DNA of 64,000 nt, taken from NCBI GenBank assembly GCA_001724265.1, contig MEDY01000092.1, positions 1-64,000 of the forward strand, in the 5' to 3' direction. Positions 4,163 through 53,376 of this stretch are shown piece after piece. Under the pieces are notes generated by a model that did not search any database, was not told the origin of the DNA, and saw nothing but the letters and a program-made list of their open reading frames with translations. The number at the start of each line of letters is the position of its first letter. Position 1 is the stretch's first letter. Source of the DNA: Rhizaria sp. SCN 62-66. Taxonomy: Eukaryota. Position numbers and translations under genes: made by a program.

Positions 4163-6090
4163 ATGAAGTTCAAGAGTACCCGCGGCAAGGTGACCGGCTT
4201 CTCCTTCGAGGACGCCGTGTGCAGTGGGTACGCCAGCGACGGCGGCCTCTTCGTGCCCGAAACGCTTCCCACGCTCGCGCCCGCCACGGTCCGCGCCCTC
4301 GCCCGCATGACGCGTTTCGAGGACGTCGCGTTTGTCGTGCTGCGTCTCTTTATTTCTGTTGAAGAGATGCCCGACGTAGACCTCAAAACGCTGCTCCACG
4401 ACGCCTTTGTGACGTTCCCGGTCACCAACCCCAACAACACCAACGCCTACGACAACGCCAACAACAACGTGCTCCCGACGCGAACGCTCGCCGACGGCAC
4501 CGTCATCGGTGAGCTCTTTCACGGCCCCACGCTGTCCTTTAAGGACTTTGGCCAGCAGATGCTCATTCGCCTCGTTGACTACTTCACGACACGCGCGAGC
4601 TTGCGCCGCTGCCTCGTCGTTGCCACCACGGGCGACACTGGCCCCGCCGCGCTGTACGCCGTCGCCGCGTGTCGCTCGCTCGACATCGTCTGCGGCTTTC
4701 CGCGCGGCCAGGTCTCGCGCCTGCAGGAGCTGCAGATGACCACTGTCGACAGCGACAATGTGAGTGTGTTCGCGTTTGAGGGCGGAGGCGACGACATGGA
4801 CCCCAGCATCAAGGCCGTTACCACGTCGCCGTTCGCGGCCGAGCGCAAGCTGTGCGGCGTCAACAGCATCAACCTTGCGCGCGTGACTACGCAGGTTGCG
4901 CACTACGTCTGGCTCTACACGCGTCTCGCTTTCCCCAACGTCGACGATCGCACCGATACTACCACCGATGCCACTGAGGGCAAGACCGAGGACGCGCCTC
5001 TGCCCGTCGTGATCATCAACGTTCCCACCGGTGCCATGGGCAACGTCATGTCGGGTTACTTTGCCCGGCTTGTGGGCTTGCCGCTTGCGCTGAGCTGCTC
5101 GGTCAACGCCAACAACATGCTTCACAAGGCAGTTACCACGGGCGTCTTCTCAGCTCGGTACGTGCACATGTCAGTTATAAGTCTCAATATTGGTTTATTC
5201 TTCAGTTATGCATGCATACTTCTTTCTTAAGTTCTTTTAATGCCCTGCTTGTAGTTGATCTTATGTGGATGACTCTTTTATTGCCAATTGTGACTGGCTC
5301 ATACAGGGAGCCTTTGCGCCGCACTCTTTCGGAGGCGATGAACGTGCAGTGCCCCTACAACTTCGAGCGCATGCTCTACTACCTCTGCGGCCAGGACTGC
5401 GACGCTGTCTCCACTTTCTACACCACGCTGGGGATGGAGGGGTCCGTGACTCTCAGCGACACGGTCAAGACCGAAATCGCCAAGCTCATCAGGACCACCT
5501 GGGTCACTGACGCCGAGATGGCCGTCACCGTCCGCAGCATTGCCCTGACCAACTCCAGCGTCGACAGCGACGTCGGCGTCGCCGGTGTTGACGCCGCGGC
5601 CATTGCCACTATTGCTGCCGCGGCCGCTGAGGAGGAAAAGACCGGCACCAAGGGCCCACTCACCATCATCGACCCCCACACCGCGGTCGCGGTCACCGGC
5701 ACCCGCAAGCTCGGGCTCCGTGCGCTGCCCGCGGCTACCGTCGCGGCGCTCAAGGCTTCCGGCGGCCTCTGGCCCCTCACCGACGACTCCGATGGGAGCG
5801 CCGACGCTGCTGCGGCGGGCGGTGTTAACCCGCCTGTCGTGGTGCTTGCAACGGCGCACCCCGCCAAGTTCGCCGAGGCAACCACCGCCGCACTCGGCAC
5901 CGACGCATGGAACGCCCTGTTCTTCAACTCCGAGACGCGCGCGACGGGCCCGCTCATGCCCGCGCGCGCTGCCGCGCTGTACAGCAAGGAGATCGCGCAG
6001 AAGGCCGTGTTCGCTCAGGGCGAGGACTGGGAGGAGAAGCTCCGCGTGCTCATCGATGAGACCATTGCGCGCTCCAACAGCAAAAACTAA
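4163..6090 (+). CDS. Threonine synthase / THNSL-like PLP enzyme, 592 aa; exons 4163-5157, 5307-6090
   Basis: Motifs KFKSTRG, ASDGGLFVP, ELFHGPTLSFKD (PLP lysine), ATTGDTG, NSINLAR, VPTGAMGN, PYNFER, IDPHTAVA and LATAHPAKF. A GTACGT...CAG intron (5158-5306) joins the frames. Stop TAA. Confidence 0.92.
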
Positions 6091-6256
6091 AGGTCGTCTT
6101 GCAACGCATGGACTGTCTGCGATCATAACACAAATTTAGGTTGAATCAATAAAACGGTTTATTTTCAGTGTTATACTAAAATATATCTGGGCAACTCAAA
6201 CAAACACATCCTCACAGTGACTTTGCATAAAACTGGGTGTGTGTGATCCTGCTTTC

Positions 6257-7849
6257 TTAAGGCTTCTGGCCGGCGTTCTTGGCGGCACGAATCCGTTCCA
6301 GCTCGGCCGCGCGCGCCTCCGCGTCTTTTCGCCGACGCTCCTTCTCCTCAGCCACCTTGGCCTTCATGCGGGCCTCGGCAGCGCGCTTCTCGGCGTCTTG
6401 GCGCTTCTTGAGCGCAGCGGCGTCCTTGATCTTCATCATCTCGAGCCGCTCCTGCATCTCGAGCGCGGCCTTGCCCACATCGCGGCGGCTCACTTCGCGC
6501 GCCTTCTCCGTCTCAATCGCCTCCTTGGCGCGCCGCGCAGCCACCTCGGCCTTGCGCTTCTCGAGCCACGCCATCTTCTCTTCCGTGGTCATCTCACTCA
6601 GCGGCTTCTGCCCGGCGCGGCGGGCCGTTGCCTCCCCGGCGGCGCGCGCCGCGGCCGACTCGCGCGCCCGCGCCGCCTTGGCAATCGCCAGGATCGAGGG
6701 ATCCGTCTCGCCATCGTCCTCGTCGTCGCCCATCGCCGCGCCGCCGCCGAGCGAGTGACCGTGGGCAGGGCCGTTGAGCTCGGCGTCGAGCTTGCGCGCA
6801 GCCTCCAAGTCCTCCTCCTCGCGGATCTGTCGCTCGAGCGCTTCCAGTTCCGCCACCGTCATGCCCTCAAGCTGCGCACCTGACACGCCGTCCGTCGCGC
6901 TCGCACTCGCGGTCGCGCTCGCGGTTGCTGAGCCAGTCCCCGCACCGCCAGCGTCGCCGTCGGTCATCGGCGCGGCGGCGGTCGGGGCGCCAGCGGCCGC
7001 CGGAGTCAGCGCGGCGCGGGCGCGGGCGGCGCGTTCGATGCGTTCGGCGCGCTCCGCGGCGGCGGCCTTCTCGGCGGCGGCAGCGGCGGCGGCGGCGGCG
7101 GCCTCGGCCTCGGCGGCGGCCTTGTGATGCGCGACCTGTGCCGCGACGGCAGACTTGGCGGCCTCCTGGCGGGCGGCTTCGCGCGCCTTGGCCTCGGCGG
7201 CGCGGGCGGCGGCGCGCTCGGCGTACGCGGCCTCGTCGGCGGCCGCAGCAGCGTCCTCAGAGGCGCGGATGGCGGCGGCGGCGGACTGGGCGGCGGCGAG
7301 GCCGGCAAGCACGGTTTGGATCGCCTCCAGGTCGAAGAGCGCGTCCGGGATGTTGAGGCGATCGCCCTATTTCACAAAGCCGGCGTGGCGCAGGATATAC
7401 CAGCCCGCCAGGGAGGGCGAGGTCAGGCGCGGGAGGAGCTTGGCGCCGTTGAGGCTGCGGAAGCGCGCGTTGCTGGGGTCTCTGTACGGTGACGAAGCAG
7501 ACAGGAAGAGTGGGAACTTGAGAATAAAGACCCGCATTGGCGGCACTTAAGCCCGGATATGATATACAACACAAGTCACTATATGTTATCAAATTGAATG
7601 GACGTACTCGGTAATGGTCTTGAGGATCTTCTCGATGCTGTCGACGTCGAAGAGGGGGTTGCCCATGGAGGTGAACAGGGCGTCGAGGCACATCTGCAGC
7701 GGCACAGCGACGTGTTTGACCTGAACAAACAAAGAATTCAAAATGTATACGCGGTTAGCATACAGAAAACATTGCGTGGCTGTGAGGTACATGCGTTAAC
7801 CTGATAATATTCGTACCTCTTTGGCGACCTTAGCGACAGTGACACTCAT
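6257..7849 (-). CDS. PUB-domain protein with UBXN1-like charged coiled coil (probable p97/Cdc48 cofactor), 456 aa if the in-frame TAG is read; exons 7817-7849, 7608-7720, 6257-7481
   Basis: Spliced frame reads IEKILKTITEDPSNARFRSLN...ILRHAGFVK[TAG]GDRLNIP, the PUB pattern. It continues through a MIU/UIM-like QIREEEDLEAARKLDAE to KPLSEMTTEEK...EVSRRDVGK. Two GTACG...CAG introns with consistent phases. Stop TAA. Confidence 0.8.
7367..7369 (-). other. In-frame TAG (codon 87) within the PUB domain; candidate recoded codon
   Basis: Minus strand reads GGC TTT GTG AAA TAG GGC GAT CGC CTC. The same frame stays open with coding-type codon bias for 369 more codons. Confidence 0.85.
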
Positions 7850-8620: not shown

Positions 8621-9727
8621 TTACAGTGACATCCCGAGTACAAGCACGGCAAGCACAGAGAGCATCGCAACGCTGCCGGCAAGCACGGCGCCGGCACTAG
8701 CGCTGTTGCAGCCCTTGGTGGAACAGAGCTCGCAAGTGCCCGTTGCGATGAGGTCGCCGAGAGTCGTCGTGCGTGCGTTCAATGTAAACTAAAGCAGAAA
8801 CAGAATCGGCAGCCCGAAAAACACATTGTGAGACTCAAGCAATGGCAATAAATGATATCGTGAAACGAACATGTTCTAAACATTAAACTTAAGAGAGTGA
8901 GTTCCAGTAAAATGAATACGGCAACGTACATTAGAATTATAGTCAGGGCGCGTCGCGTTACCACAGTTGATCACAAACGCCTGATCCTTTGTCAACATGG
9001 TGTCCGACGCAATCTCAATCGACAGCTTTTGCGTCGTGTCCTCGTCAGCGTCGACAGACTCCGTGTAGTCGCCAATCGTGATGTTGCAGCCCTCGAAGGT
9101 GCCCGCGACAAACTGCGCCTTCCCCGTAAGCGTGTACTCGAAGTAATAGCCCTCGCCGGTGATGTCGGTGCCAAGCCCGCCGCCCACGGCCACCTTAAGC
9201 GCACCGCCGCCAGAGCCGGTAGTCTTGTTCTTGCGCTCAGTCACCACCGCGGCGGTGAGCTTCGAGACGTCGTAGGGCGCAATAACGGTGACCGTGGGCG
9301 TGGCGAACGTGTCGGCGTCGAAGCGGATCGCGGCGGGCAGAGACACGGGCTTGTCAGTGGTACGCACGGTCTCGCACTCAACCGTCAGCACACCGCCCGA
9401 GCTCGGCGTGACGTCGGCAGGGACAGTGAGCGCGAGCACGCCCTCAGCAATGGCCGCAAAACCCGCGGCGGTGTCGCCAACGGTGCATGAGATCGGGAGG
9501 CCGCCGGACGACCAGGCTGTGCCACCGGCGGCGACAGGGAGATCGACCTCGATCGTGGTGTCCTCGGGCGGCGCGGTCTCACCGATGTCAAGGCGGATTG
9601 TCAGTCGACCGCCGGTGTTGACAACGCCGTAGCTGTGGGTAATCGTGGTCTCGGCGGAAGAGAGCGCGAGAAGAGAAGCGACGGTGAAGAGCAAGGCCGG
9701 AAAGGCGAGGGAGCGGAGGAACTTCAT
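8621..9727 (-). CDS. Predicted GPI-anchored surface protein, 321 aa; exons 8930-9727, 8621-8788
   Basis: Signal peptide MKFLRSLAFPALLFTVASLLALSSA and a Thr/Gly-rich, beta-strand-like body. After the GTACGT...TAG intron (8789-8929) it reads CELCSTKGCNSASAGAVLAGSVAMLSVLAVLVLGMSL then TAA: small omega-site residues followed by a hydrophobic tail. Confidence 0.8.
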
Positions 9728-11779: not shown

Positions 11780-12957
11780 ATGGCGACCGCCGCCACTGCC
11801 CCGCGCTCTGCCGCCGCCCTATTCTCCACACTTGCTACTGCGGCCTCCGCGTCGCTCCCTGTGCTGCTCTTAGAGGCGTTGGTCCACTGCGACATCTACG
11901 ACTTCACCCCGATCCTCGCCCTGCCCGCAGTCTCCGTACGTGGAACGAAAGACTTTCGCCACAAAGCTCGTCCTCAAATGTGGATGCTCTGCAATATGTT
12001 ATGGACTGCTGCAGTATATGTATTTCATATTGTTTCTGTTTTTCTTAGACTCGATATAGACTATTTCCTCCTCTATTTGGTAATCTGACCCAGTCTCACC
12101 ACAAATCGTTTCTGCCTACTCATATCCTTCATAACACTTACTAATCGCACTATCGCTCTCCAAACCAGACATATGCTGCTTCAAGCAACGACTCGACTGT
12201 CGTTGCTATGCGCCACTTCCCCAGCCTCTCAGTCACTGATGCTAGCAACAACAACAACAACAACAACAACAACAGCAGCGCTACTGCCAATGCGACTGTT
12301 GCTTTGGCAGCCATCTCTGCCGCTCTGAGCAGCAACGCCTGCGACTGTGAGTTCGTGTTGAGCAAGTTCCACACCGCCCGCTTTGCCGCCCACTGCCGCG
12401 CCGCCGCTGCCGCCCACGGCCTCCCTTGCGAGCTCAGCTACGACGGCGTCGCCACCTCACTCAACCTCGACAACACCGTGACCACGACTGGCGCTGGAGC
12501 TGCTGGGGCCTGCTGCGCCACTGACGCGGTTGACGGCGCCGTTGAGGCTGCTTTAATACAAGCCGCGTCCGCCGGACTGGTGACCGCACGTGCAGACGCG
12601 CAGGCGCGCTCGCTGCTGCTGCTCACGGTCACCCTCACAAACCCCGCTTTCGCCGCCGCCAACAGTCCCGCCGCCACCGCGAGCGCCGCCGCTGCCGCGG
12701 GTGCTGCCGTCTCCGCGGAGGCGCTCCAGGCCGCGGCGGCCCGCGCGCGCGCCGTCGCGGCCTCGCTCGTCCGTGGCGCCGCGGCGGCCACGGCGCTGGG
12801 TGCAGGGGAGACCGCGCTGCGGGCGGCCGTGGGACAAGAGCCGATGGGGGGCTTCGAGGACGCATTCGCGGCCACGGCGCGGGTCAAGGCCGCGGCCACG
12901 CAGGGCGGCGTTGCGGCGCTCGCGGCGAGCAAGGGGGACAGGGGCTACCATAATTGA
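11780..12957 (+). CDS. Highly divergent PCI-domain protein (CSN7/eIF3m-like), 314 aa; exons 11780-11935, 12169-12957
   Basis: N-terminal LEALVHCDIYDFTPILALPAV resembles CSN7/eIF3m. Winged-helix-like ELSYDGVATSL...VEAALIQAASAGLVTARADAQARSL. Intron GTACGT...TACTAAT...CAG. Stop TGA. Confidence 0.6.
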
Positions 12958-13585: not shown

Positions 13586-15920
13586 ATGGATTTCGACCCC
13601 AACACGCCTTTCCCCACCGGGTACGTCCTTCTAAAATGTTTTACACTTCTGTGGCTTCCCTGTCTGACGCCAGCCCCAGTGCGCACCCTCTCTGAGCCAC
13701 TTCGAGGAGGATGTGGTCATCGCGGGCTGTGCCTCAAGCGCTCTATAAACGCTTGTCTACAGCAATAACGCCCCACTAACCACACTGTTCATGTCATTCT
13801 GTGTATTCTGCGCCCGGTGTAGGTTGGTGCAGCCGAAGTATACGGCGCCCATGATCCTCTGTTGCGGCTGCGGCGTGAGCATCCAGTCGAACCCGGCGAA
13901 CATGTGCGCCCAGTGCCTGCAGTCGCGCGTCGACATCACCGCGGGTATCCCGAAGCAGATCACCATCTTCTGGTGCCGCAACTGCCGCCGCTACCAGCGC
14001 CCGCCGTGGGAGGACGTCGAGCTTGAATCGCAGAAGATGCTCTCGCTCTGCCTCAGCAAGATTAAGGGCCTCAACAAAGAGGTCAAGCTCACCGACGCCG
14101 CCTTCATCTGGACCGAGCCCCACTCGCGCCGCATCAAGGTAAAGCTCACCGTACAAAAGGACGTCTTTAATGGTATCATCATGCAGCAGGTCTTCGTCGT
14201 CGAGTTCGTCGTCGGCAACATGCAGTGCCCCGACTGCGAGCGTTCCTTCACCGAGCACACGTGGAAGGTCTGCGTCCAGGTCCGCCAGAACCGCAAGCAC
14301 AAGCGCACGCTCTTCTTCCTCGAGCAACTGCTCGTGCGCCACAACCTCTGCGCCAACACCACCGATATCAAGGAGCTCACCACGGGTCTCGACTTCTACT
14401 GGGACAAGATGTCGCAGGCCAACAAGCTCATCGCCTTCCTGCGCTCCGTGCTGCCCGTCAAGATCTCCAAGGCCGGCGAGAAGCTCATCTCGCAGGACGA
14501 CAGCAGCAACACCAAGAAGTTCAAGTTCGGCATGCACATTGAGATTGCCGAGGCCTCGAAGGAGGACGTCGTCATGGTCGACCGCCGCATCGTCTCCGCC
14601 ATGGGTACGTCTTGAACTCAACAAACGACTGTATATATCTCTTGTTACAACGCCGAAATTATCGCATACTATGCATTTCTGTTTTGTTTCTATTATATTT
14701 TTTGTTTTTCATGATGCATCTCTCATATATTGCTCCATAACCCTCGTTCTGTGCTCTTTTTTTTTCGCACTTTACTCACAGGCGGTGTGTCGCCGGTTCT
14801 GCTCGTGTATCGCGTGTCCAACACCGTGCACCTGATCGACCCTGTGACCCTGAAGACGTTCGAGCTCGACGCGCGCCACTACTTCGCGCACCCCCTCCGC
14901 ATCCTGCTTACCCCCGAGCAGCTGACCGAGTTCATCGTCATCGATGTCGACGTCATCGGCGACGAGAGCGTCAACATGCACGGCCAGCATCACCTGAGCG
15001 CCAACACGCGTGGCCAGTCGCTGCAGACGGCCAACGCGGCCCGCCAGCGCGCCGGCAACGTCCACAACGCCGCCCACAACAACAACCGCTACAACTCCGG
15101 TCTCACGGGCTTCAACAAGCAGACTGCGTTCAACGCGCGCATCGTGCTGGCCGAGGTGACCGTGGCGCGCTCGCACGAGATCGGCGAGGAGGGCGCGATG
15201 ATCGTCTGCCGCACGCACCTCGGTGCGGTCCTCAAGCCCGGCGACACAGTGCTCGGCTACGACCTCGCCAAGCGCAACATCATGGGCGACGTGCAGTCGA
15301 CGTTGCGCGCGCGCGACCTCCCCGACATCATTCTTGTCCGCAAGACGTTCCCGCACCGCACCAAGCGTGCGCAGCGCCGGCTGTGGAAGCTCAAGCACCT
15401 GGCCAAGACTGCGGCGGACTCGGGCGCGAGCCTCAAGAAGCGCGCTGTGCTGGCCGCCAAGGAGGAGGAGGAGTACGAGCGCTTCATGCAGGACGTCGAG
15501 GAGGACCCCGAGATGCGTGCCAAGATGAACCTGTACCGCCGCTACGAGACGGACGAGGAGGCCGTCAAGGCCGGCGCCTTGAAGGCCGCCGCCGCCGCGA
15601 TGGGCGACGACGCGGCTGCTGCAGTTGCGCCCCACGACGACGACGGTGACGACGACGACGGGTTCCCCGAGGTGCGCATGGAGGAGCTGCTCGACTCGCT
15701 GCAGCAGCTTGCCGTCGACGACGACGCCGCGCGCGCCGCCGCCGAGGGCGGCCACGGCGAGGAGAACGAGGACGACGACGAGGAGCTCATCGGCGCCGAC
15801 GACGGCTACGCCAGCGCGCCCGTGCAGAAGGTCGAGACGGGCCGCGGCGTGCGCAACAAGGCGCGCAACGCGCCCGCGCGCTCCGGCGGCTTCGACGACG
15901 ACGAAGACGCGCAGTTCTGA
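13586..15920 (+). CDS. NMD3: 60S ribosomal export adaptor NMD3, 651 aa; exons 13586-13620, 13823-14604, 14782-15920
   Basis: Motifs CCGCG...NPANMCAQC, CRNC, DAAFIWTEPHSRRIKVKLTVQK, CPDC, VQVRQ...HKRTLFFLEQL, RTHLGAVLKPGD and an acidic tail with NES-like MEELLDSL. Two GTACGT introns. Stop TGA. Confidence 0.96.
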
Positions 15921-25529: not shown

Positions 25530-25560
<31 letters not shown>

Positions 25561-30494: not shown

Positions 30495-33400
30495 TTACGC
30501 AAGCCCCGGCAGTGTGTCACGGTGCAGGTTGCCAGTGCTGTACTCGGTCTTCTTCGCCGTGCGCCGCACATACGTCGTCACACTCACCCCGCCGCCCGAG
30601 CTGCCCACGCTCGCGTTTGCACTCGCATTAGCGTTGTTATTCGACGAAGAGCCCGCACCGCCGGAGACGGGCTGGACGGTCGTGACTGGCACCAGCGTCG
30701 TGGGCAGCGTCTGCTGCGACAGCTTCGCGTTCGGCAACGAAAACCGCACCCTGGAGATGAGGTTCCTGAACTTGGCCATGTCGCCGTACACGCTGCCGGG
30801 CCCGCCAGGCGCGAGCCTGCGGAAGGCGCCCAGGCGCGCGGGCATCTGGCCGAAAAGCCGCGGCACGCGCCCGCGCAGCAGGCGGTGGAAGTGCGCGTTG
30901 AGGCGCTCGTCGTAGCTTGCATCGGGCGAGAGCCCGGGCGGGACGGGCCATGCGCCCTCGCGCGCGCGCGCCGCGAGCATGTGCGCGAGGTATGCGCGGT
31001 CGAACGGCAGCGGGTCGACCATGGTGAGGATGTCGGCCAGCAGCTGAGGCTTCACGGCGCGGTCGATGCTAGTGTTGAGGTTGAGCGAGGGCGACGCGTT
31101 GGCCTCGATCACCCACGGCTTGAGCTTCGAGTCGAGCATGACGTCGAAGCCGAAGAGCTCGAAGCAGTTGGGCTGCGGTCCGATCTTGTTCTTGACACAC
31201 ATGAGCGTGCGGATCACGACGTTGTCGATAGACCGCATCACGGCGTCCGTGTCGACGCCCAGCGCGGCGAGGTCGGCCAGGCAGTCCGACAACAGCTGCT
31301 TCGAGCCGCCCTCCTGCTCGAAGGCCGCGATCTCGGCCGTGGTCGGCGGCGGCGGCGGCGGCGGCGCAAAGAACTCGCCGTCCCACTCGCCCTCAGCCAC
31401 CGCCGCCGCGGCAGCACTCGCGCCTGCAGCGCTGTTGCTGCTGGTGTTGGAGTTGCTCGCGGTGGCCTGCAGGTGCGCGATACCGGCGTCCTGCCGCTGC
31501 GCCGCCAACTGCAGCAGCAGCGTGCGCGAGCCCACCACAGTCGCGCCGAGCACGTTCGTGGTGAGGTCCGAGACGGTGTGCACGGCTGCCGGCGACTTGG
31601 CCGCCGCGGTCGCCAGTACGCTCGCGCTGAATGCAGACGACATCGGGTCGCCCGCAGCCGCGCCAGCGCCAGCGCCAGCGCCGGCGCCAGCGCTACCACT
31701 CGCGATCTCAGCGGGGGTGGCGCCGGTACTGGCAGCCGCGCGGGGGCGCGCGGCGTTGAGCTGCATGCCGCTGGCGCGCTCGATAAACGCCAAGCCGCGC
31801 TCGACCGACGTCGGGCCGCTCGCACTGGCGTTGGCACTGGCACCGGGGCGCCGGCCGGCGAGCGACTTGGCTCCAGAAGCGGCGGAGCGCTTGGCGGTGG
31901 GGGACGCGACCTCCTCGTCGTCGTCATCGTTCTCGTCATCGTCGGGCTCGGAGTCGCCGCCGCCGCCGCCGTTGCCGCCGCCGCTGTCAGTGCCCTTGTC
32001 GAAACCCTGCCCGATGCTCGAGTTGGTCAGGTGGATGAACGGGTCGTTAAGCGACTCGGGGTCGGTGCGGTACGGGCGCATGGCGTAGCGCGCGAAGCCC
32101 TCGTTGTAGATGAACGCCTCGAGGGGCTCGAAGCTCGTGACGACGACGTAGAGACGGAAGTCGAACTTGCGCTTGTACATTACGCACGGGTCGGCGATGT
32201 ACTCCTAGAGTGAATTGCACAAAAAGCAAAAATTGATAAAGATATACAGTTATATGAGCATGGAGATAGAAAAGTGATCGAAAAGATGTACGAATCATGC
32301 CTTGCGCCTTCGATCAAAAAATCGGTTTGATTCCCATTTCTGAAGACAGCATTGACAAATCTGTGATTCAGTGATATTACATGTTACAACGTACCTGAAC
32401 GACTGCGGGGGCGCCCGAGTGCGGCATGTGGGCGAGCTTGTTGGTGAGATAGATGCCGCGGCCGCGCGACGAGTTGATCGGCTTGATGATCCACACGTTG
32501 CGTGGGGACGGAAACGGCGGCACCGCAGCGGCGACCGCCGTCGCGCTCGTCAAAATGCGCACTGTGTTGCTGCTGTCACCCGGCGCACTCACACTGGCGT
32601 TGGCGCCAGAACTAGAGGAGTTAGGACTCGTTGAGCTCTTGTTCTGGCCCATCGTGCCGTTGCTGTTGCTGTTGTTGTTGTACGTCCACGAGTACTCGCC
32701 GCCGTACAGCGCGTTGGCCTGCGCCATATCGACCCGCAGCGGCAGCGCCAGACCGAGGCTTTCGACGTCCTCCGCGGTAAGCGCGGCGGCGTTCGCAGCA
32801 GAGTTGGAGAACTTGAGCGCGGACGTGGAGTGGACGGCGTTGTTGGTCGCGTTGTGTTTGTCGACCTTGCGCAGCAGCGCGACGAGCTTCGCGAGCAGTG
32901 GGTTACTGGCGAGACTGTCGGCGTCATCGCGCGAGCCGTAGCCCTCGCTGGCGCTCTCGCCAGTACTGCCCTGCGCCCCACTGCTCTTGGCGTCAACACC
33001 GCTCGCGTTGGTAGAGTGTGACTGCGAGCCGAGCTGAGCCGCGAGCCCCAGGCGGACGCCCCACTCCTCGGCGCGCAGGATGACGTCGCGATCGTAGTAA
33101 CGCTCCAGGAACGGCTGCGCGGCGAGCGGGAGCGTGAAGGTGCGCGGGATAAACTCGAACCAGCGCCGCATCACGGGGGATCCCTCGCAGAGCTTGGCGT
33201 AGCGTGAGATGTTGCGCGACAGCATCGCTTTGCGCGTGAGGTTGCACGAGCGGGAGAAGTGGTTCACCTTCTGGAACGCGAGCAGCGGCGCGGTGTCGAG
33301 CGGGGAGTGGCGCCACGTCCAAAGCAGGTTCCAATACGCGTTGCCGGGGGTACCCAGGATGGCGAGTAACGCGGACGGGGGCGTTTGCGACGACACCACA

Positions 33401-36400
33401 GCAGTCGCAGAACCGGTACTCGAGCCATCGGCGTTACTGCTGTTGCTGTTGCTGTTGTTCAAGCTGTGCGCGTTGAGCGGCGAGTAGTCGCTGTTCATCT
33501 TGACGTCCTTGTTGAGCAGCGTGACGATAGGCCGCGGCGTGGGCACGTACGGCATCGTCGCCGGGTCCAGGCACTGCGACCACGGCAACAGCGGGTACTT
33601 GGGCGCCGTCACCGGTTGCGGCAGCGCGCATGCCAGCGCGCCACACAGCGCCAGCGGCAGGGGGCCTGTCGCCGCGGGCGCCTCGGTGCTCTGCTCGCTG
33701 CCGTCGCTTATCGCCGCGCCGCTGCTGCTGCTGTTGTTGCTGGTGTTGCTCGTGCTGTTCGTGTGCACGTTGTTGGTGACGAAGCTGTGCGTGCGGGCCG
33801 AGTACGCGCCAAACCGCGCCGGGGCCTGCGACTGACCGTGGGCAGCACCGGTACCGGCAGCGCTAGAACTCGAGGCCGCGGCAAACGCGGCGTCGGTGCC
33901 CGCTTCGATCGCCTTGGCGACGTGCAGAAAGCGCTCAGCGTTGAAACCCACATGCACAGCGTCACTGCCACTCGCGGCCGCGGTCGCAGCAGCAGTGGTC
34001 GTGCTGTTGCCGCTGTTTGCAGTGACGTTTGTGGCGTGCCTGCGGTGGATCGCGCTCACGGTCGATGCCACTGCGCGCACGTTGGCCGAGTGCACCAGCG
34101 ACACACGCGTCTGCGTCAAATGCAGCAGCTCCGAGACCGCAGCCGGCGTGGCGACCGCCTCGGCGGCCACGGCGGCGGCCAACGCGTCCTCGGTGTCGGC
34201 ATCGTCGTCGTCGCCCCCATAGGCAGTCCCACGCACATCGCTGTTGTCGCCGTCGTTATTGTGGCTCGATAAGTTGGTTTTGGCCTCGATGGTGGCCCGG
34301 CCGAGCTCGAGCGTCATGAGCTCCTCGGCTTCGCGCCGCGCCTGCGCGTTGATGCGGCCGATGGCGAGTTGCATCGCGGCCCACACCTCGGGCTTCTCGG
34401 CCGACACGCAGATGTACAGCCGCGACGGGTCCCAGCGCGCGGGGTCCAGGTGACTCAGCGACGCCAGCGAGGACGGCACGACCGCGCCCACGGTCGAGTC
34501 GTACCGGGCAGCGGAGGCGGGGCACTGCGCCGGCGCCGGCGGGGGAAAGAACGGGTCCAGCGCAGCCGCGATGCGCGCCTCAGTCGCAGACAGACTGGAG
34601 TTCAAACGCCAAAAGATGACAAAAGATGAGATAGATATGCGTGAGATTAAGAATTGTTGATGCTAATGATTGAAAATAGTTAAACAGCCACAAATTAAAT
34701 GGTTTCGTTTAGTATGATGTCATATTCTAGAACATGCGACGATCACTCATAAACACACGTACCGAGCAGCAGCAGCCGTAGCGTTCGCGGCGCCCGCCGC
34801 GGCGGTCTTGTCGGCCGGCGAGAAAGACAGCGGCAGCGGCTGCGCAGTGAGGATGGTGGTCGGGTCCGCCGGCAGCCGCAGCGCACGCGCGGCCGCGGCG
34901 GGCAGCGTCCAGCCCGCTTTGGCCGCGGTCGCCATCGCCAGCGCGTGGGCCTCCTTGGGCTGCAGCGAGTGACCGTGGGCGACATGGGTACCCGCGGTGC
35001 CGGCAGCACCCGTGGGGGGCATCAGCGCCGCGACGGCTTTGTTTGGGGGCGCCGCCAGCGCGGGGCTCGCGGCGGCGGCGGCGGCGACGGGGGCGGTCGA
35101 TGGGGGCATCATGTCTACCCAGGGGTCCGCGATGCCGTGCAGCGCGGCGCGCCACAGCGCGGCCTCCTCGGCCGGCGGCAGCGGCACGATGCGGAGCTGG
35201 CGGCAGAGGAAAAACATCACGGCCAGCGGGAGCGCGGTGGACGACACGGGTGTCGTGGTGGCAGCCGCACTCGCGCTCGCGGTGGCGGTGGCATTACTAG
35301 TCGTCGTCGCGAGGGCGGTGCTCGCGGTCGTGGTGCGGGTGGTGACCGCGGGGGTCGCAATCGCGCCCTGGGAGCCTGTGGGCGCCGAAGTGTTGGCGTT
35401 GAGAGTAGTCGCATTGTTGCTGTTGTTGTTGGACACAGAGCGGGTGGAGCGAGGCACCGGAAATGCCTCCGAGTCGACCAACGGCGCGCCCGCCAGCGCC
35501 GCGGCCGCTGCAGCGCCAGTGCCAGCGCCCGCGCCCGCGCTTGAAAGCGAGAGTGGGGAGTTGAACATGGGGCCGTCGCGGGAGAAATCGCCACTGCTGC
35601 TGCCGAGAGTGTTGCTCGGGCTGGGGTCAATGTCACTAATGGGATTCGCGGTATTAGCGAGATTGCCAGCGCCGGCAGTCGCGGTGGCGAAGGGCGACAG
35701 CGCATTCGCGGTCGCGGCGTCGTTGCGGTCGTCGTCATCGTCGGTCATGCCGACTGCGGTCGAGCCCTTGCCCGCGAGGTTGGCCTGGGCAGCGGCCGCG
35801 GCAGCAGCGCCCGCGAGGAACGTCGCCGTCGCACTCGCGCCAATCGAGCCAGCACTCGCGCCGCCCGCAGCAGCGCCAGCAGTAGAGCTGTTCGCGCTAC
35901 TGGGGTTGGTCGTGTTGCTGCTAGTATTGCCGGGCGGGGGGGAGTTGGCGCGCCGCGAGCTCAGCCGGCCGCCCTTCCAGCCCGCCATCGCGGCGCCGAC
36001 GCGGACAAAGTTGACCCAGCCCGAGACGGCAAACGCGGCGAGCCTGAGCGCGGCGGCGGTGCGGGCGGCCGAGAGGGGCGCTGAGTAGCGCTGGCGGAAG
36101 AGGGCCTGCTGGGCGAGCTGGCAGCGCAGCGCGGCGCGCAGCGACGCGTGCAGAGCGGGTGACGGGGGGCACGTCCAGGGGGCCGAAAAAAGAAAAGTTT
36201 CCGAGGGGAAATAGGCCGGGTACAGCAGAGGTGCAGTCGACATCACCGGAACACTAAACGTGAAAAAGAAGAATATACGGGATATAGCACAAGATGTGAG
36301 GCGCGTGTGATAGAATGAATAAAAAAGTCAAGCAATAGCCTGAAAATCGTATTTTGTGTGGTGACGATACAATAAACATCTCTTTGATTGCGATATAGCG

Positions 36401-37922
36401 AGCGATAATGAAGCACATACCTGAGTCCCTTAGGAGGCGTGCGAGTATAGCTGTTCGCAACGGGCGCGCGCTTGACCGGCCTCAGCACAGCGGCGCCGCT
36501 GCTGGCCGCACCTCCACGCGTACCGGCACTCTCAGCAGGCGGGTTGCGGCGGCTGGAGGGGGCGTCCCTGGCCCTCGAGCCCACCTTGGCCTGCGACAGC
36601 CCGTACCGAGATTGTTCAGACGGAGCCTGCTGAGCCTGCGACTGAGACTGAGCCTGGGACTGCTGAGACTGGCGGAACTGTGCGAAGGGCTGGGACAGCG
36701 GCTGCGCCGCGGCGGTGTTCTGTTTGTTCCAACACAGCTCGTCGATGGCGCCACTGGGCAGTACGGGCAGCGCAGACGCCACCGCCGCCGCCGCCGCCGC
36801 CGCGGTCTGCAAGGGCTCGGACGCCACGGCGGCGGCCAGTGTGGCAGCCGCGGCCGCGGCGGCGGCGGCGGTGGACTCGGCGAACGAGGCGTCGAAGCTA
36901 TCAAACGCGTTGTTGTCATTACCATCGTTATCATTGTCGATATCTGTCATAGCTGGAGCAGCGGAGGTGTTATGAGACAAACTACTCGACTTGTGGTTGC
37001 TGCTGCTCGCAGCCGCCGCCTTCCGTGTGGCTTGACTATTATGCGCGGCCAACTGCCTGTCAATGGCGGCCACGGCGTCCTCGGCCGCGAGCTCCTGGGC
37101 GAAAAACTCGCAGTCGTCAAACCAGCTGCCCAGGAAGGGAAACGCGGCCGCCACTGCCGAGACGGAGCCGGGGTTGGACGGGGACGGAAGCGCTGCGGCT
37201 GCGGCCGGGCCGCCGTAACCAGGGCTGGGGCTAGAGCTGGAGCCTGTGCTGACTGAGAGAGAGGACAGCGAGCTAGTAATGCTGCTGCTGTTGTTGTTGT
37301 TGAAAGCACTACTGCTAGACGTGGGTGTCTTGGGCCTGACAGACCGCGGAGTGACAGTATTCGCAGCGGAAGCACTACTAGAGCTCGCGGCCGCACTCGA
37401 CACGCTCGACGCGGTGGCGGCATTGGTGTTGCTGTTTGTATAGAGCCTCTCCAGGTCGTTGACGGCGGCGACGTCGGCGGCGTCGAGGAACGCCGCCAGC
37501 TGCGACAGCGCACGGCTGCTGTGCGGTGGGCTCGCGGCTGCGCTGCCGTCGCTCATCGCACTGTCCGCCGTGCCAGCACCCGCGTCAGAGCCTGCGCCGG
37601 GGCTGGCGCTGGCGCTGGCGCTGGTGCCCTCTCTCGCCGCGGCGATGGACTGCGTCAGAATGTCGCGGATGTTAGACACCTGGCGCTCGATCGCCTCGAG
37701 GAAGACCGCAACGTGGCGCGAGCGCTCGACAGCGTCCGCGCGGGCCTCCGCGGTGGCGAACTGCGCGGCGCTGGCGGCGTGGCGCTCGAGCTCGGCCTGG
37801 TTGCGGCGCGCGGCAAGGTCCACGAGCGCTCTGAGGATGGCGACGACGGACGCGCGCGGGAGGGCCGCGAGCTCGGCCTTGGTGAGCGCAAGCAGGCGCA
37901 GTGACGGCGCGGGGGGGTTCAT
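30495..37922 (-). CDS. Tubulin-tyrosine-ligase-like (TTLL) polyglutamylase-type enzyme with large low-complexity expansions, ~2300 aa; exons 36421-37922, 34763-36253, 32395-34594, 30495-32204
   Basis: Motifs WNLLWTW, QKVNHF, FIPRTFTLP, WIIKPINSSRGRGI, VVQ|EYIADP, KFDFRLYVVVTSF, HLTNSSI and [28 protein letters not shown]. Three introns with consistent phases. Linkage of the two 5' exons is inferred from splice phase only. Confidence 0.85.
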
Positions 37923-38570: not shown

Positions 38571-39715
38571 ATGGTACGTTCTCGCCTTCTTGTTCAGTCA
38601 TCACGAAAAACGGCTCTCTCTTTCCCGCACCTCCCAAACCATCTCACTCCCCCGCTTCCCCGACGCCGTGTATTGTTATTTTTGTTGTTAACAGGCTGAT
38701 CCTAAGGCTAAGGTTGGCCCCACCTGCAAGGAGGCGATCCAGAAGTGGCAGGCCAAGACCAAGGAGGACCCCCAGTCAGCTACTAAGGTCTCGCTCATCG
38801 CCATGTTCCTCCGCAAGATGGAGCCCGCCCTCAACACCCTCGTCAACTGTGAGTACGTCCCGCCCTTACTCGCACATGTCTCCCTACTGTAGATCCTGCT
38901 GCTTCTCCCTCTTAATGGGTTTGGCGTGTGCTGCATCGCATTTGAAATGTGCAGTCGCAGGTTTGTTTTCTTGTCCGCTGTTGGCTCTATTTGAATCTCA
39001 TGCTCACCAATCGCTTTTCCACACTCTAATGGTTGTTGTCATCGATTAAAACACGTAGGCACCTTTCTCTGTCGACCAACATGATCGACAAAATCGCCCC
39101 TCTGCCTTCGCTCAAGCGCCTCAAGATCCTCACCCTGGGCCGCAACAACATCCGTAAGATCGAGAAGCTCGAGGACCTGGCCGGCTCGCTCGAGCAGCTC
39201 TGGCTTTCCTACAACGCAATCGAGAAGCTCGACGGCCTTTCGTCGCTGCGCCACCTCTCGGTGCTGTTCATCTCGAACAACAAGATTAAGAGCTTTGACG
39301 AGCTCCTCAAGCTCAAGGACCTCCCCAAGGTACGTTGCATCTAACACGATCTCATTAAGACTGTCACCCATTTTTACGCAGCCCGATTATAATTGAAAAT
39401 GTGGCTCACACGTGCTATATTTAGTTGTTCAGCTACGGAAGCAACATATTCATCCTCAAATCTCACGCTTTCTCGTTTCTCTCTTCTGGTGCCCTTGCGC
39501 CTTGCATCCCAACATCACACTCTTGACGATCGACCTAACTGCAGCTCTCGGAGCTCCTGCTGACGGGCAACCCGATGTACGACAACCTGTCCCGCCAGGA
39601 GGCACGCGCCGAGGTGCTGCGTCGCCTGCCGAAGCTCAAGAAGCTCGACGGCACGCTCGTGTCCGAGGCTGAGGTCGAGGCCGCGCTCAACCCCGAGAGC
39701 CTCGAGGTCGCGTAA
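38571..39715 (+). CDS. DNAL1: Axonemal outer-arm dynein light chain 1 (LRR), 200 aa; exons 38571-38573, 38695-38852, 39059-39329, 39545-39715
   Basis: Motifs TCKEAIQKW, RKMEPALNTLVNCEHLSLSTNMIDKI, LKILTLGRNNIRKI, LEQLWLSYNAIEKL, LLLTGNPMY and RLPKLKKLDG. Three GTACGT introns. Stop TAA. Confidence 0.95.
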
Positions 39716-40984: not shown

Positions 40985-42121
40985 TTAGTCATACCGCTCG
41001 TCATCGTCATCCTCCTTCTTAGTGCTGTTGTTGGGGTTATTGTTGGTGTTGTTGCTGTTGCTGTTAGAGCTGCCGACCGTCTCAAGGGGACGCACACTGA
41101 CGGTGCCCATCATGGCGTTGCCGACCATGACGCCCTGCTTGTGCGCCACAATCATCTCCTTGAACACCAGAAAGTCGCCCAGCGAGGTGAGCAGCTCGAG
41201 AATCTGCTCGTCCACCTCGTCCGACCGCGCCGTGGTGAGCTGCATGAACTCGCCCAGGTCACAGTCGGGCACCACAGACAGGGCCGACTCCAGCAGCTTC
41301 TCGATCAGCGCGGTCTGCGGAAGCGACGCAGCAAAGAGCACAAACAAGTGCACAAGTGAGAATTAGATGAGAAAAAGTGAGTTGTGGTGAACGCGGGTTA
41401 CTCGAATGCAATTTGAATTTTGATTGTGCCTCGGACAATATAATCAGCAATGTTGATGTGCTTTAATGTGATGTGTGTGAAATAAATTATTATTCGACGT
41501 ACCCACTGCTGGAAGATGGGCATATACTCGAGCTTGTTCTCCTCACTGGCGTCGAAAATGCCACAGTGCTCAGACAAAAACGCGTCTTGAGCCTGGCCGA
41601 ACTCCTGGCGAAGAGCAAAACAAAGGTTTTAGAATGAATGGAGGCAAAATATGTGTGTGAGAGTGAGTTGTAGTTCTGAGCGGTCTAAGGTGTAGAATAT
41701 CAGTGGTCTCAAAGGAGTGGCGATGGGTTGATGTGAGAGACTGAGACGAACCTCGCTGCAGACAAAGGTCTGAAGAGCGTCGATGTACTGGTCAAAACGA
41801 TCAGTCTCCTCGTCGCGGGGGCGGCTACGTAGAAGGCAGAGCGACATTAATGGGCAAAGAGATCAAGATGGAGACCACAAAGGGTGAGTGAAAGTGAGAA
41901 GCCAAAGGCCAAGGAGACACAGGCGAGACACAGCATCGAGAAATAAACACATTAAATTGTCGACTGAAACGTCAAATTTGAACATATGGTTCATTTAGAC
42001 ACAGTATTAGAGGAATACTATGAAGATATGCATGGTTGAGATGAACGTACTGCGTGGTGGTGAAGATGATCTCACCATCGTCTCCGTTGTCGGCGTTCAT
42101 CAAAGTGGTCTTGTCGTCCAT
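40985..42121 (-). CDS. ARL2BP: ARL2-binding protein (BART domain), 191 aa; exons 42051-42121, 41752-41824, 41503-41604, 40985-41314
   Basis: Motifs RFDQYIDALQ, FLSEHCGIFDASEENKLEYMPIFQQW and DEVDEQILELLTSLGDFLVFKEMI. Three introns in phase. Stop TAA. Confidence 0.88.
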
Positions 42122-42601
42122 CGCTGTTGGGAGTGCAACAGAACAAAGAAAGAGAAAATGAAATTATGATTGCTTAGTTAGCTCATATTAAAGTCGACTT
42201 GAATCGCTAACACCTTCATGTGACGTCTAAAAATTGAGTTTAAACCCTGACAAAAATGGCCATTACAAACGGCAGCTCATCTTTGTTGTTCACTGGCTGG
42301 CCGGCCATCGATAGCCGTTGGGGTGCATGACAACATCGCATTTGTGGTTATAAAAGTTTGATATCTACAAATTGTGTATTACTGCAGTGTGGTATAGTGG
42401 TCTAACCTTACAAACGAACGTATAATCAACTCCAATAGACCGCATCTGCGCATTGATTTGACTTTGAACAACCTTGTTCTTCAAAATCCCTTCCATTCTA
42501 CATTCAACTAACCCAGCCGGACCGACACAAAACTAAATCTACTCACTCATCAACATGAGCCCCATACGACATCATCAACCTCGAAACCACCGCTTCCCGC
42601 C

Positions 42602-44210
42602 TTAGAGCGAGGGGCGCATGGAGGGGGTGACGTAGGTGGCAACGGTGGTGCCGTTGACGACGTCGAGGATCATCTTGGGCTTGAGGTCGGCGTTGACGAT
42701 GCCGTGCGTCTTGCCCTCGTCGAGCGGCTTCGCGGCCTCGATGCGCAGCTTGTGCAGCTCCTCAATCGCGCCGGTGGACGCATTGTTGGCGAGCCAGAGC
42801 TGGCGGTGGCCGAGCGCGAGCTTGGACACGTTGGCGGCGCGCGTGAGCAGGTAGTCGGCCTGGTTCTCGGCCGCAGGGCCCACGCGGGGGTAGAAGAAGC
42901 CCGCGGAGACGTTGAAGGCGGCCGTCGAGGTGCCGTTAACGTTCTCGGCCGTCTTGTTGACGTAGGTGACGGGCACGGGGCGGTACATCATGACCGCCTC
43001 GGGCGAGTAGTACTGGTTGATGATGTCCTGGATCTTAGGCGGGATCGGCACCATGTCGGGGTTGATCTTGGGCACGAACTCGGCCTTGGCGCCAGAGCGG
43101 GCCTCCAGGAACGAGGGGACGTAGGGCGAGGGGCTGCCGCCGACGATGTGGGTGGGGATCGAAGCGCCGCCGTTCTGGAAGTAGAACTCCTCATACTCGG
43201 CGAGGCCCTCGCGGAGGGTCTTCATGCTGTCAGCAGACGCCAGAACCATGTCCTCGGCCGACTTGATCAGCTTGGGATTGATCGAGATCTGCTCGGCGTC
43301 GCGGCCGAGGGCGTCGCGCACCATGTCGCTCGTGTTGCCGGCCTTGCCAGCGCGGAACTTCCAGCCCTTCAAGAAGGTGACGTTCTGGGCCGCGCGCGCC
43401 TGGGCCTGCGCCTTCTCGGCAGGGAACAGCGTGATCGCAATCGTCGTGTCCTGCGCAGCCGTGTCGACGACGCCGGCGTAGGGGACGAAGCCGGGGGCGA
43501 CGCCGGACTCGATGAGCGAAGCGTCCTCGGTCTCAGCCTCGGCGTCAGCGTCAGCATCGGCCTCGGAGTCAACGTCAGCCTCCTCGTCAGCGTCGGCGTC
43601 GGCGTCAGCCTCAGCGTCGGCCTCGGCGTCGGCCTCGAGCTCGAGCTCGGCATCGGCCTCGGCGTCAGCGTCAAGCTCAACGTCGGCCTCGACGTCAGCA
43701 TCCATTTCCATGGCGTACTCCGTCTCGGCCTCAGCGTCTTGCTCAACGAAGCTCACCCCGAGAGCTGCGTTATACTGAGGCTCATCTTGATAAACCTCAG
43801 AGCCGCATGCGCCCTGTAATAAAGTAAAGTTGGGGAGAAACAAGCGGGCAGGGCGAAGGATAGGGGAAGGACAGGCAAGGGGAGAGGAAGCAGGCAGGGT
43901 ATGAGTGAGAGTGGGCAGAGAGCAAGGGGAATCAGCCAGCGAACTTAGAAGGGATAGACGGAAGGGAAGGCGACGTCAGAAGCGCGCGTGGTGGTTCTGA
44001 AGGGATCAAACATGGGATATTATATCCTGTTGAAATGCCTAGAAGAGCATGAGCGCGGCGGGGGACTTTCTGGAGAGCGTTGAAGAAGGAGCACAGAGGG
44101 CAACAGAGGGGAGAACAGGGTCGAGAGGGGAGCAAAGAGGGGGCTTTACGTACCTGCATGGTAAGTGCTAGGGCACATGCGATCACCAGAAACAAAAGAG
44201 ACACTTTCAT
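42602..44210 (-). CDS. Secreted protein with (DAEA)n acidic pro-region, unknown function, 422 aa; exons 44154-44210, 42602-43813
   Basis: Signal peptide MKVSLLFLVIACALALTMQ|GACG, split by a GTACGT...CAG intron. Very strong C/G-ending codon bias and many NxS/T sequons. Stop TAA. Confidence 0.8.
43530..43745 (-). repeat. Coding degenerate hexamer repeat (GAY/GAG-GCY), Asp/Glu-Ala dipeptide run
   Basis: Encodes DADAEADAELELEADAEADAEADADADADEEAD. Confidence 0.8.
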
Positions 44211-44329: not shown

Positions 44330-44425
44330 GACTTCTTGTGGACCGAGCCAGTCGGCCGCCAGCCTGCTGGGCCGAAAAATCGATGGGCCGGTCGGACTGG
44401 GGCATTTTGCTGCGCCGCGGTCAAG
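44330..44425. promoter_or_regulatory. Putative compact bidirectional promoter (276-bp gap between start codons)
   Basis: Divergent ATGs at 44210 (-) and 44487 (+). GGCC-rich core containing GGGCCGAAAAATCG. Confidence 0.5.
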
Positions 44426-44486
44426 TGATATATGCGACTGAAAGAATCCGTTGTTTGGTCATTAGTTTGATTAACTGAATAGTCAA

Positions 44487-45643
44487 ATGAGCCGCAAGCG
44501 TCGTGCGAGTGAAATGAAGGTCCAGGAGTCTTCCGAGGAGGAGGACGGCTTCGATGCCCTCGAGTTCGAGGCTCTCGAGGAGTACCAGGAGGAGATGGAG
44601 AAGATCAAGCGTGCTGCCACCAGCATCAAGGGCGAGATCATTAACAACAAGGTACGACATTCCCCATTACGCATTTGACCACTACCCCCTGCTTTTAATC
44701 CACCCAGGGTCTTCTGTCGCTCATAACTCGTCAAAGCCGTCACACACACTTCACTTCCCTCTCACACCTCTCGAAACTTCACGTCTCTCTTTTGCTTTTG
44801 TCTCCCTCGGTCCCTGTCCGCCTTATGCTTTCCTGTCACGCTCTCCAGGAAGGTCTGCTGCAGAAGATTGAGGACATTGCGCTGCCGCGCGACTGGATGT
44901 GGATCGAGACGCTCGACGTGCACACCACAGAGCCTCTCCAAGTCGACGAGAACGACGACCTTAAGCGCGAGGCCGCCTTCTACGAGTCGTCCCTCGACGC
45001 CGTCAAGCTCGCGCTCATCCAGCTCAAGCAGTCGGGCGTGCCGTTCGAGCGCCCCGCAGACTACTACGCCGAGTCCGTCAAGCCCGACACGCACATGTCC
45101 AAGATCAAGCAGATCCTGATCAACGACAAGAAGCGCATGGAGGAGGTCGAGGAACGCCGTCGCAAGCGCGACATCCGCAAGTTCGCCAAGGCCGTCCGTA
45201 CCGAGAAGGTCAACGAGCGTCTCGACCGTAAGCGCGCCGCGCTCGAGGAGATCGACCGCGTCAAGAACCGCAACAAGCACAACGACGTGTCGAGTGCCGA
45301 GTTCAAGGCGTCTCTCCGCGGCGGCGGCGCCAACGGCAACGCCAGCAAGGGCAAGCGCTTCGAGGACTCGCTCCCCGGCGGCGTCGAGGCCGCCGAGCGC
45401 AAGGGCAAGGTCGGCTACCGCGGCAAGCGCGACGACGGCGCCGCTGCGGGCGGCAAGTCGCACAAGCGCGCTGCCAAGGACGAGAAGTATGGCGCTAAGA
45501 AGACCAACCGCCGCAACACGCCCGAGAGCTTTAACGACACTTCGAGCTACAGTCGCAAGCACAATGAGAGTGCCATCGGCCAGTTCGGTCCCAAGGGCTC
45601 CCACGGCAAGCGCGGCGGCGCCGGTGGCAACAAGCGCAAGTAA
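44487..45643 (+). CDS. EBP2: rRNA-processing protein EBP2, 319 aa; exons 44487-44651, 44849-45643
   Basis: Motifs INNK|EGLLQKIEDI, WIETLDV, NDDLKREAAFY, PFERPADYYAESVKPDTHMSKIK, RKFAKAV and KRAAKDEKYG. Stop TAA. Confidence 0.93.

Positions 45644-53339: not shown

Positions 53340-53376
<37 letters not shown>

Follow-up and report, generated by a model that had tools for sequence, protein, structure and literature searches.

How can a 5′ splice site whose fourth intronic base pairs with neither U1 nor U6 small nuclear RNA (snRNA) become the rule in a genome, and must the splicing machinery be rewired for it? The question is raised by a stretch of 64,000 nucleotides from Rhizaria sp. SCN 62-66 (hereafter, the window), which opens contig C92 (MEDY01000092.1) of a eukaryotic assembly of 34.9 Mb in 714 contigs (GCA_001724265.1). 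A preliminary description of the window had reported a near-invariant GTACG donor and suggested either a compensatory change in U1 or U6 or donor recognition by proteins. Here, we find that the donor pattern is real, genome-wide and strong, albeit not invariant, that the snRNA genes recovered from the assembly carry standard pairing sequences, and that UAG very probably no longer terminates translation in this genome.

The raw count of GTACG, 56 per strand of the window, says little because many copies sit in coding sequence. Three motif-free checks nevertheless establish the donor. The first is RNA evidence, obtained from contigs of RNA-type runs (labelled wastewater, activated sludge and biofilm) that contain the window and were placed on its positions 5100–25090, stretches lacking RNA cover being left aside. 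Seven introns are fixed in this way, six by X1 joints among the 15 listed of 25 RNA joints and the seventh by pieces from X4; all are GT-AG, four starting with GTACGT, two with GTACGA and one with GTAAGC. The nine other listed joints lack GT-AG ends, and eight of these have a short side of 20–25 letters. Run X1 was labelled ‘probably DNA’ by the tool, yet its contigs skip GT-AG introns, run X4 has a small share (0.07) and contributed one intron, and run X5 crosses five of the seven introns unspliced. When eight donors fixed by homology (three of them by eye) are added, +4C is found in 13 of 15 donors, +5G in all 15 and GTACG in 11; the homology-fixed junctions include, for eRF1, GTCCGT, GTACGC and GTATGT and, for Prp8, GTCCGT and GTACGG. 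The second check is a gene model that demanded nothing of a donor except GT; it was applied to the window together with 60 additional 10-kb loci, and 18 further loci were held out. GTACG opens 74 of 180 introns in the former set, the runner-up being GTATG with 8, and 32 of 48 introns in the held-out loci, against a background of 1.3% of all GT. In the pooled donor-blind introns, GTACG accounts for 106 of 228, and the +4 base of GTANG donors is C in 106 of 119 cases (T 10, A 2, G 1). The third check, which dispenses with gene models altogether, covers 844 kb (the window and 78 loci): GTACGT occurs at 46 GC-to-AT boundaries, with 3.8 expected, and at 8 reverse boundaries, whereas GTAAGT occurs at 2, with 1.4 expected. 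This stricter test supersedes a cruder one, in which the signal was weak (GTACG 8.3% vs 2.2% overall).

When the model was allowed to learn its donor, GTACG opened 127 of 184 introns, and the consensus became CAG/GTACGT (the slash marks the junction), with +3A at 0.79, +4C at 0.79, +5G at 0.87, +6T at 0.67 and −1G at 0.67. These counts include wrong calls, and they are approximate because the self-trained model lost true introns, two RNA-fixed ones among them, in the AT-richer gene at 20–30 kb. The donor thus stands as first described, without its near-invariance, which the learned counts and the variant donors of eRF1 and Prp8 contradict. The original tally for the window (21 GTACGT, 5 GTACGA, 2 GTATGT, 1 GTAAGC and 1 GTTCGT) is close to our partly motif-guided list of 33 donors (22, 7 with one doubtful, 2, 1 and 1, respectively). 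The exonic −1 base, said to be often not G, is indeed T or A at some donors, but G occupies it in 20 of the 33 window donors and in 0.67–0.69 of modelled donors, so that the exon side follows the ordinary CAG-type consensus.

These are probably ordinary major (U2-type) spliceosomal GT-AG introns, about 110–250 nt long (median 173 nt), at a density of approximately 0.3 per kb of modelled coding sequence, a figure from a model that misses introns. The snRNAs that would act on them are unremarkable. The one U1 gene found, single-copy by DNA search, has four stems and an Sm-like site, and its 5′ end, GUACUUACCU, carries the canonical ACUUAC; U6 keeps ACAGAGA and U2 keeps GUAGUA. The compensatory change envisaged in the preliminary description, an ACGUAC end of U1 or an ACGGA-like box of U6, is thus not supported by the candidates scored (41 of 308 for U1, 48 of 1,299 for U6). 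Because the snRNA genes are unchanged, +4C mismatches nucleotide U5 of U1, and opposite the A at the centre of the ACAGA box of U6 it does not pair in the standard way. Nor does U1 pairing select +4C, the modelled duplex of GUACGU being far weaker than that of GUAAGU (−6.4 vs −12.5 kcal/mol, for test strings that differ downstream too). Among donor-blind donors with +5G, the full GTACGT is found in 29 of 45 lacking −1G and in 38 of 96 having it (p = 0.007), a compensation that stems from +6T, not from +4C. At the other end of the intron, a predicted branch motif, CTCAY, was located at −80 to −29 from the 3′ end, a long spacing to the acceptor, in 159 introns (CTCAC 79, CTCAT 43, CTAAC 16, CTGAC 7); CTCAC was found 0 times on the antisense strand, and unseeded expectation maximization on the branch-like motif yielded C at 0.79 before the A. 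CTCAY is likely to be the branch site, and at both donor +4 and the base before the predicted branch A, C lies opposite an unchanged snRNA U.

The protein factors that the preliminary description had named for checking, METTL16, SNRNP27K, U1C and LUC7, are all encoded, the last by one gene. METTL16 keeps its NPPF and DIGTG motifs in frame, and SNRNP27K has the C-terminus RQYMN, the Met of which we take to be the equivalent of human M141. Hence, loss of METTL16, of SNRNP27K or of its Met, as in the yeast-type +4U switch, does not appear to be the case here, both genes being present, and +4A is nearly absent despite them. The zinc-finger region of U1C (L168, contig C179), a gene whose own intron starts with GTACGT, differs from the human protein at L13, a position that affects U1 duplex stability in yeast, and at several neighbours. 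In Prp8, 74 of 951 otherwise invariant columns are changed.

We lean towards a composite explanation in which standard snRNAs serve a CAG/GTACGT consensus, the +4 base is set outside base-pairing and UAG was recoded separately. Under this explanation, the consensus would have shifted to CAG/GTACGT in a probable cercozoan, with the exonic AG together with +3A, +5G and +6U holding the helices, and with weak exon ends tending, statistically, to be offset by the full GTACGT. The choice of C at +4 would be made outside snRNA base-pairing, most likely by spliceosomal proteins; protein-based donor recognition is our best guess. N6-methyladenosine (m6A) on U6 would disfavour +4U, leaving C as the tolerated pyrimidine, in keeping with the destabilising effect of m6A:U pairs described in the accessible part of the literature (PMC11732430). 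By itself, m6A does not predict C, because published work links METTL16 and SNRNP27K M141 to +4A; the genome is an exception to that link, which the proposed model explains only in part.

Several points weigh against this explanation. The available text of Parker et al. (2023, PMC10581693) ties retention of METTL16 and of SNRNP27K M141 to +4A, not to +4C. Methylation of U6 is assumed from the presence of the METTL16 gene, and the protein that this gene (L004, contig C75, − strand) encodes is divergent, with long low-complexity insertions. No compensation exists between +4C and −1G (32 of 45 donor-blind donors without −1G vs 83 of 96 with it; p = 0.34 in the learned model), the branch site is a predicted one, and the changes in U1C and Prp8 may reflect merely a long branch or drift. 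A U5 snRNA with loop 1, which was also to be checked, had no match among the 48 of 683 candidates scored; for U1 and U6, the scoring covered 41 of 308 and 48 of 1,299 candidates, respectively, and the assembly may be incomplete and lack copies of snRNAs.

Four other explanations of the donor have to be considered. Both C preferences oppose an snRNA U, so that a single cause, namely post-transcriptional editing or modification favouring C at the U facing +4 in U1 and at the U facing the pre-branch base in U2, would cover both; these residues are pseudouridines in model species, according in part to the sections of published papers available to us. We nevertheless consider such alteration rather unlikely, given that YTCAY branch sites are reported to be common in human introns with normal U2 (PMC10638238, in the part accessible). 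It is still less probable that the genome has an additional U1 rewired to ACGUAC, the form known from Mastigamoeba, or a rewired U6, which is absent from the assembly or lies among the unscored candidates. Mastigamoeba, as far as the accessible account goes, proves that ACGUAC can evolve, the assembly consists of 714 contigs and yielded no U5, and the U1 found scores 47.9 bits against its covariance model, below the 69.5 cut-off; on the other hand, the covariance model and the DNA search converge on this one U1, which has all four stems and an Sm-like site, and when a pattern permitting ACGTACC before the U1-70K loop was used, the ACTTACC copy alone matched. Similarly improbable is the view that the consensus merely survives from a past burst of related introns (introners), with no active selection upon it: the narrow range of intron lengths would suit this view, but just 2 pairs among the 127 GTACG introns share a match (22–28 nt), and +4C persists amid otherwise unrelated intron sequence. 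The same lack of shared sequence largely rules out a recent introner burst. Least probable is a shifted register, in which the first four bases of U1, GUAC (the gene, L001 1501, has G rather than the consensus A at model position 1), would pair with the self-complementary donor GUAC at +1 to +4 and select +4C, because, although this 4-bp register gives the best duplex at a donor without −1G (−4.5 vs −1.2 kcal/mol with A at position 1), the normal register wins on CAG/GUACGU (−6.4), a helix of four base pairs is weak, and U6 alone would have to account for the conserved +5G and +6U.

The second peculiarity of the genome concerns its code. With all three stops allowed, modelled genes end in TAA 71 times, in TGA 66 times and in TAG 9 times; the end is followed by AT-rich sequence in 52 of 71, 48 of 66 and 0 of 9 cases, respectively, and all nine TAG frames are open 50 codons on. 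Where 30 coding codons precede the triplet, the same frame continues as coding sequence after 27 of 64 TAG, as opposed to 0 of 99 TAA and 2 of 119 TGA. Five TAG with AT-rich tails emerged from a later model, all of them behind a donor-like GTNYG within 45 nt, and are read as intronic. That TAG is very probably not a stop in this genome had been missed in the preliminary description. METTL16 contains two in-frame TAG and would be intact with UAG as sense; a pseudogene, considered on account of these TAG, was rejected, TAG being non-terminal and the frame keeping the motifs. As a separate observation, a dynein heavy chain match (contig C164:48099–49313, + strand) contains an in-frame TGA, which may belong to an in-frame intron.

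The termination factor itself is affected. The eRF1 gene (L099, contig C63, exon 1117–1828, − strand) has an in-frame TAG at the position of human E107, a column occupied in 117 homologues by E (106), D (10) and V (1). Relative to these homologues, the protein carries T32S (T in 117 of 117), G57S (G in 117 of 117) and T58K (T in 116 of 117); according to Panek et al. (2017, PMC5304391), it is Thr32 that touches the G of UAG, and this residue is altered in Iotanema. One may speculate that the in-frame UAG in eRF1 acts as a feedback loop. A metagenome scan for this gene returned four loci, one identical, possibly from the same material and hence not independent, and three distant.

A transfer RNA (tRNA) with the CUA anticodon is encoded on contig C84 (76008–76080, − strand; L161 109–181), scores 58 bits, is single-copy and has a T run after it; it is the likely decoder of UAG, and it belongs to this genome because the neighbour gene has a GTACGT intron. 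It matches tRNA-Glu(CUC) at 47 of 73 positions, sharing the TCCCA start and the T-stem, compared with 38 for Glu(UUC), at most 37 for the remaining types compared, and 31 and 25 for Gln. The gene came from a pattern search that gave 29 matches, five of which were fetched, one being a tRNA; earlier surveys had scored 63 of 506 candidates, none with CUA. The corresponding pattern for UUA and UCA anticodons gave 115 matches (100 listed) vs 99 for the control, that is, chance level, and neither of two inspected with ARAGORN and by eye was a tRNA. Summed Pfam bits over three TAG sites are highest for E (256.1), followed by Q (254.1), K (253.0), S (252.1) and L (247.0); TAG falls inside a domain at the curated Pfam cut-off in 2 of the 30 segments scanned (37 TAG segments in all). 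An amino-acid context test on 34 of the 37 TAG sites, three having been dropped as wrong-frame or non-coding, gave negative scores throughout, with V, E, K and L at the top and Q last.

It is very probable that UAG no longer terminates and is translated, and most of that confidence extends to translation as Glu, the identity of the amino acid resting on the tRNA and the three sites. An unlikely but serious alternative is that UAG is not cleanly Glu, being read as Gln or representing a weakly suppressed codon of mixed meaning that was dropped as a stop. Speaking for it and against Glu, UAG accounts for very few codons (44 of 221,901 in the gene models, 0 of 2,392 in Prp8 and 0 within 13 dynein domain matches, the open frames of which reach 5,164 amino acids), one ubiquitin-like copy has TAG where its paralogues have Gln, Val occupies the TAG site in the closest eRF1 relative, and the Pfam margin of E over Q is just 2 bits in sum; the likeness of the CUA tRNA to tRNA-Glu(CUC) rather than to either tRNA-Gln, and the near-uniform E or D at the eRF1 site, speak for Glu. 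Taken together, we regard as reasonably probable a cercozoan code, caught at an early stage, in which UAG means Glu, UAA and UGA are stops, a single Glu-derived tRNA(CUA) does the decoding, T32S in eRF1 makes it possible and the codon is still rare, in a genome that has kept METTL16 and SNRNP27K and yet uses +4C donors and CTCAY.

The assignment to Cercozoa derives from a Prp8 tree of 47 sequences and 2,274 columns, which nests the genome in a clade that also contains Paulinella, Amorphochlora and Chlorarachnion, at a local support of 0.999. For comparison, 46 rows were picked from 120 listed matches and their cluster members; near-duplicates from algae and plants were excluded, as were four rows that were chimeric or partial. 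The organism is a probable cercozoan, and only probable, because the set had no labelled heterolobosean or retarian. The eRF1 tree was without resolution (support 0.146), and matches to EBP2 gave no lineage information. Contig C706 (L160 1501–5945) carries a highly divergent small-subunit ribosomal DNA with four group I intron matches and a frame looking like a His-Cys homing endonuclease; it seems to resemble heterolobosean ribosomal DNA, which conflicts with the Prp8 tree, and the contig may be mis-binned. The ubiquitin genes (L130–L134) start with MSMQIFVK, and free monomers end in GGHPQ; their extra Ser is reminiscent of the rhizarian polyubiquitin junction insertion. No monomer–monomer junction was seen.

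Table 1. Introns, donors and in-frame TAG codons of the window
Feature	Position	Strand	Evidence or remark
Intron, GTACGT, threonine synthase-like gene	5158..5306	+	RNA contig joint, run X1
In-frame TAG, candidate sense codon, then 369 open codons	7367..7369	−	No Pfam match at E 0.01
Predicted donor GTACGT	7602..7607	−	Learned gene model; no RNA joint among those listed
Predicted intron, GTACGA	7721..7816	−	Donor-blind and learned models
Intron, GTACGT, −1 base T	8789..8929	−	RNA joint X1; X5 covers it unspliced
Predicted intron, GTACGT	11936..12168	+	Donor-blind and learned models
Candidate donor GTACGT, first NMD3 intron	13621..13626	+	Sequence only
Intron, GTACGT, NMD3-like gene	14605..14781	+	RNA joint X1; X5 covers it unspliced
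Predicted donor GTACGT	16559..16564	+	Learned model
Intron, GTACGT, −1 base T, amidohydrolase gene	16806..17004	+	Two pieces of one X4 contig; X5 unspliced
Predicted intron, GTACGT	18770..18952	+	Donor-blind and learned models; X1 contig piece stops at 18770
In-frame TAG, candidate sense codon, inside Amidohydro_3 domain	19361..19363	+	X1 and X3 contigs carry identical letters
Intron, GTACGA	19697..19847	+	RNA joint X1
Candidate donor GTACGA	20554..20559	−	GC-to-AT step
Predicted intron, GTACGA	21168..21338	−	Learned model
Intron, GTAAGC, sole +4A donor	22509..22650	−	RNA joint X1; X5 covers it unspliced
Intron, GTACGA	22849..23069	−	RNA joint X1; X5 covers it unspliced
Predicted intron, GTACGT	24063..24277	−	Donor-blind and learned models; frame chains in phase 0
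Predicted intron, GTACGT	27752..27885	−	Learned model; frame chain
Candidate intron, GTACGT	28096..28265	−	Frame chain
Candidate donor GTACGT	28811..28816	−	Sequence
Candidate donor GTACGT	28956..28961	−	Sequence only
Predicted donor GTATGT	29639..29644	−	Donor-blind model
Doubtful donor GTACGA	29920..29925	−	Sequence only
Predicted intron, GTACGT, TTLL-like gene	32205..32394	−	Learned model
Predicted intron, GTACGT	34595..34762	−	Learned model
Predicted intron, GTATGT	36254..36420	−	Donor-blind and learned models
Predicted intron, GTACGT	38574..38694	+	Learned model
Predicted intron, GTACGT, −1 base A	38853..39058	+	Learned model
Predicted intron, GTACGT	39330..39544	+	Donor-blind and learned models
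Predicted intron, GTACGT	41315..41502	−	Donor-blind and learned models
Predicted intron, GTTCGT	41605..41751	−	Donor-blind and learned models
Predicted intron, GTACGT, −1 base A	41825..42050	−	Donor-blind and learned models
Predicted donor GTACGT	44148..44153	−	Learned model
Predicted intron, GTACGA, EBP2 gene	44652..44848	+	Donor-blind and learned models

Some features of the window deserve mention beside those tabulated. The donors at 28961 and 28816 failed to chain with a YAG at least 60 nt downstream, and one of them may be wrong; they lie in a large gene of many exons and about 11 introns that is richer in AT (20200–29950, − strand). Within the first NMD3 intron, a contig of run X5 skips 193 nt (13626–13820) between ends that are not GT-AG, which may reflect a strain difference. 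An almost intronless open frame of 4,395 codons (46198–59385, − strand) encodes an ABCC-type transporter into which large low-complexity stretches are inserted. Acidic E/D/A repeats characterize two proteins that look secreted, encoded at 1757–3550 and 41300–44200 (both − strand), the former with a C-terminal saposin-like Cys pattern, as judged by eye; the protein at 42.6–43.8 kb had no usable match in an Atlas search.

How do these findings compare with known systems? As regards the donor, the genome belongs with Thecamonas trahens and the Mamiellales (GYGCGY), a kind already described, which the preliminary description had overlooked and for which the accessible text of Roy and Bowser (bioRxiv 10.1101/2022.06.08.495308) reports +4C donors with standard U1; they share with it +4C, +5G and a single U1 with the standard ACUUAC. 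The genome differs from them in its +3A (GTACGT), its probable cercozoan affiliation, its retention of METTL16 and SNRNP27K and its branch-like CTCAY, and U6 and U2 were also examined here. Mastigamoeba balamuthi (GUGCGC donors, U1 ACGUAC) and Entamoeba (GUUUGU, U1 ACAAAC), described in the same account, likewise have an atypical +4 base in their commonest donor, but their U1 changed whereas U1 here did not, which makes them a different kind. In Saccharomycotina, where the switch from +4A to +4U goes with loss of METTL16 or of SNRNP27K M141 (PMC10581693, in the part available), +4A was likewise lost without a change in U1 or U6 sequence; here, the switch is to C, and both factors are kept, with NPPF and the Met-bearing motif. 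No report of a GUACGU/GTACGT consensus or of such a donor in Cercozoa was found in the titles and abstracts searched, most subscription papers lying outside that coverage. On its own, the donor pattern is a modest addition, one more lineage on the short list with +4C and normal U1; however, it breaks the published link of METTL16 and SNRNP27K to +4A and thereby provides a natural test of what sets +4.

As regards the code, nuclear codes in which UAG alone is reassigned are known, to judge from the accessible parts of the reports, from the rhizarian exLh (Leu) and Iotanema spirale (Gln) (PMC5304391), and from phyllopharyngean ciliates (Leu, Gln) and Scotinosphaera (Ser) (PMC11687900). The present code resembles them in its in-frame, non-terminal UAG and in UAA and UGA as stops, and differs in that UAG apparently means Glu and a cognate tRNA gene was found. 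Glu as the meaning of UAG has been described in Oligohymenophorea sp. PL0344 (UAG Glu, UAA Lys; PMC10553269), the CUA tRNAs of which are most like tRNA-Glu, and Glu for UAR in peritrichs and Blastocrithidia; in all of these, as far as the available text shows, UAA is also sense, whereas here UAA ends more genes than any other stop, and no in-frame case was seen (0 of 99). No code with UAG as Glu and UAA as a stop, and no cercozoan case beyond exLh, was found in the literature searched, although closed bioRxiv supplements and uncovered papers could contain one. Of the two results, that on the code carries more weight. Nuclear codes seldom treat UAG and UAA differently, and the matter has a practical side, standard-code annotation truncating eRF1 and METTL16 here. 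Because a single genome displays the tRNA gene, the altered eRF1 and the lost UAG stops while the codon is still rare, the order of the reassignment steps is open to study. In Iotanema, eRF1 carries T32G where the present one carries T32S, and, as given in the accessible part of its description, UAG makes up approximately 8% of the Gln codons of Iotanema, compared with approximately 0.5% of Glu codons here, if UAG is Glu.

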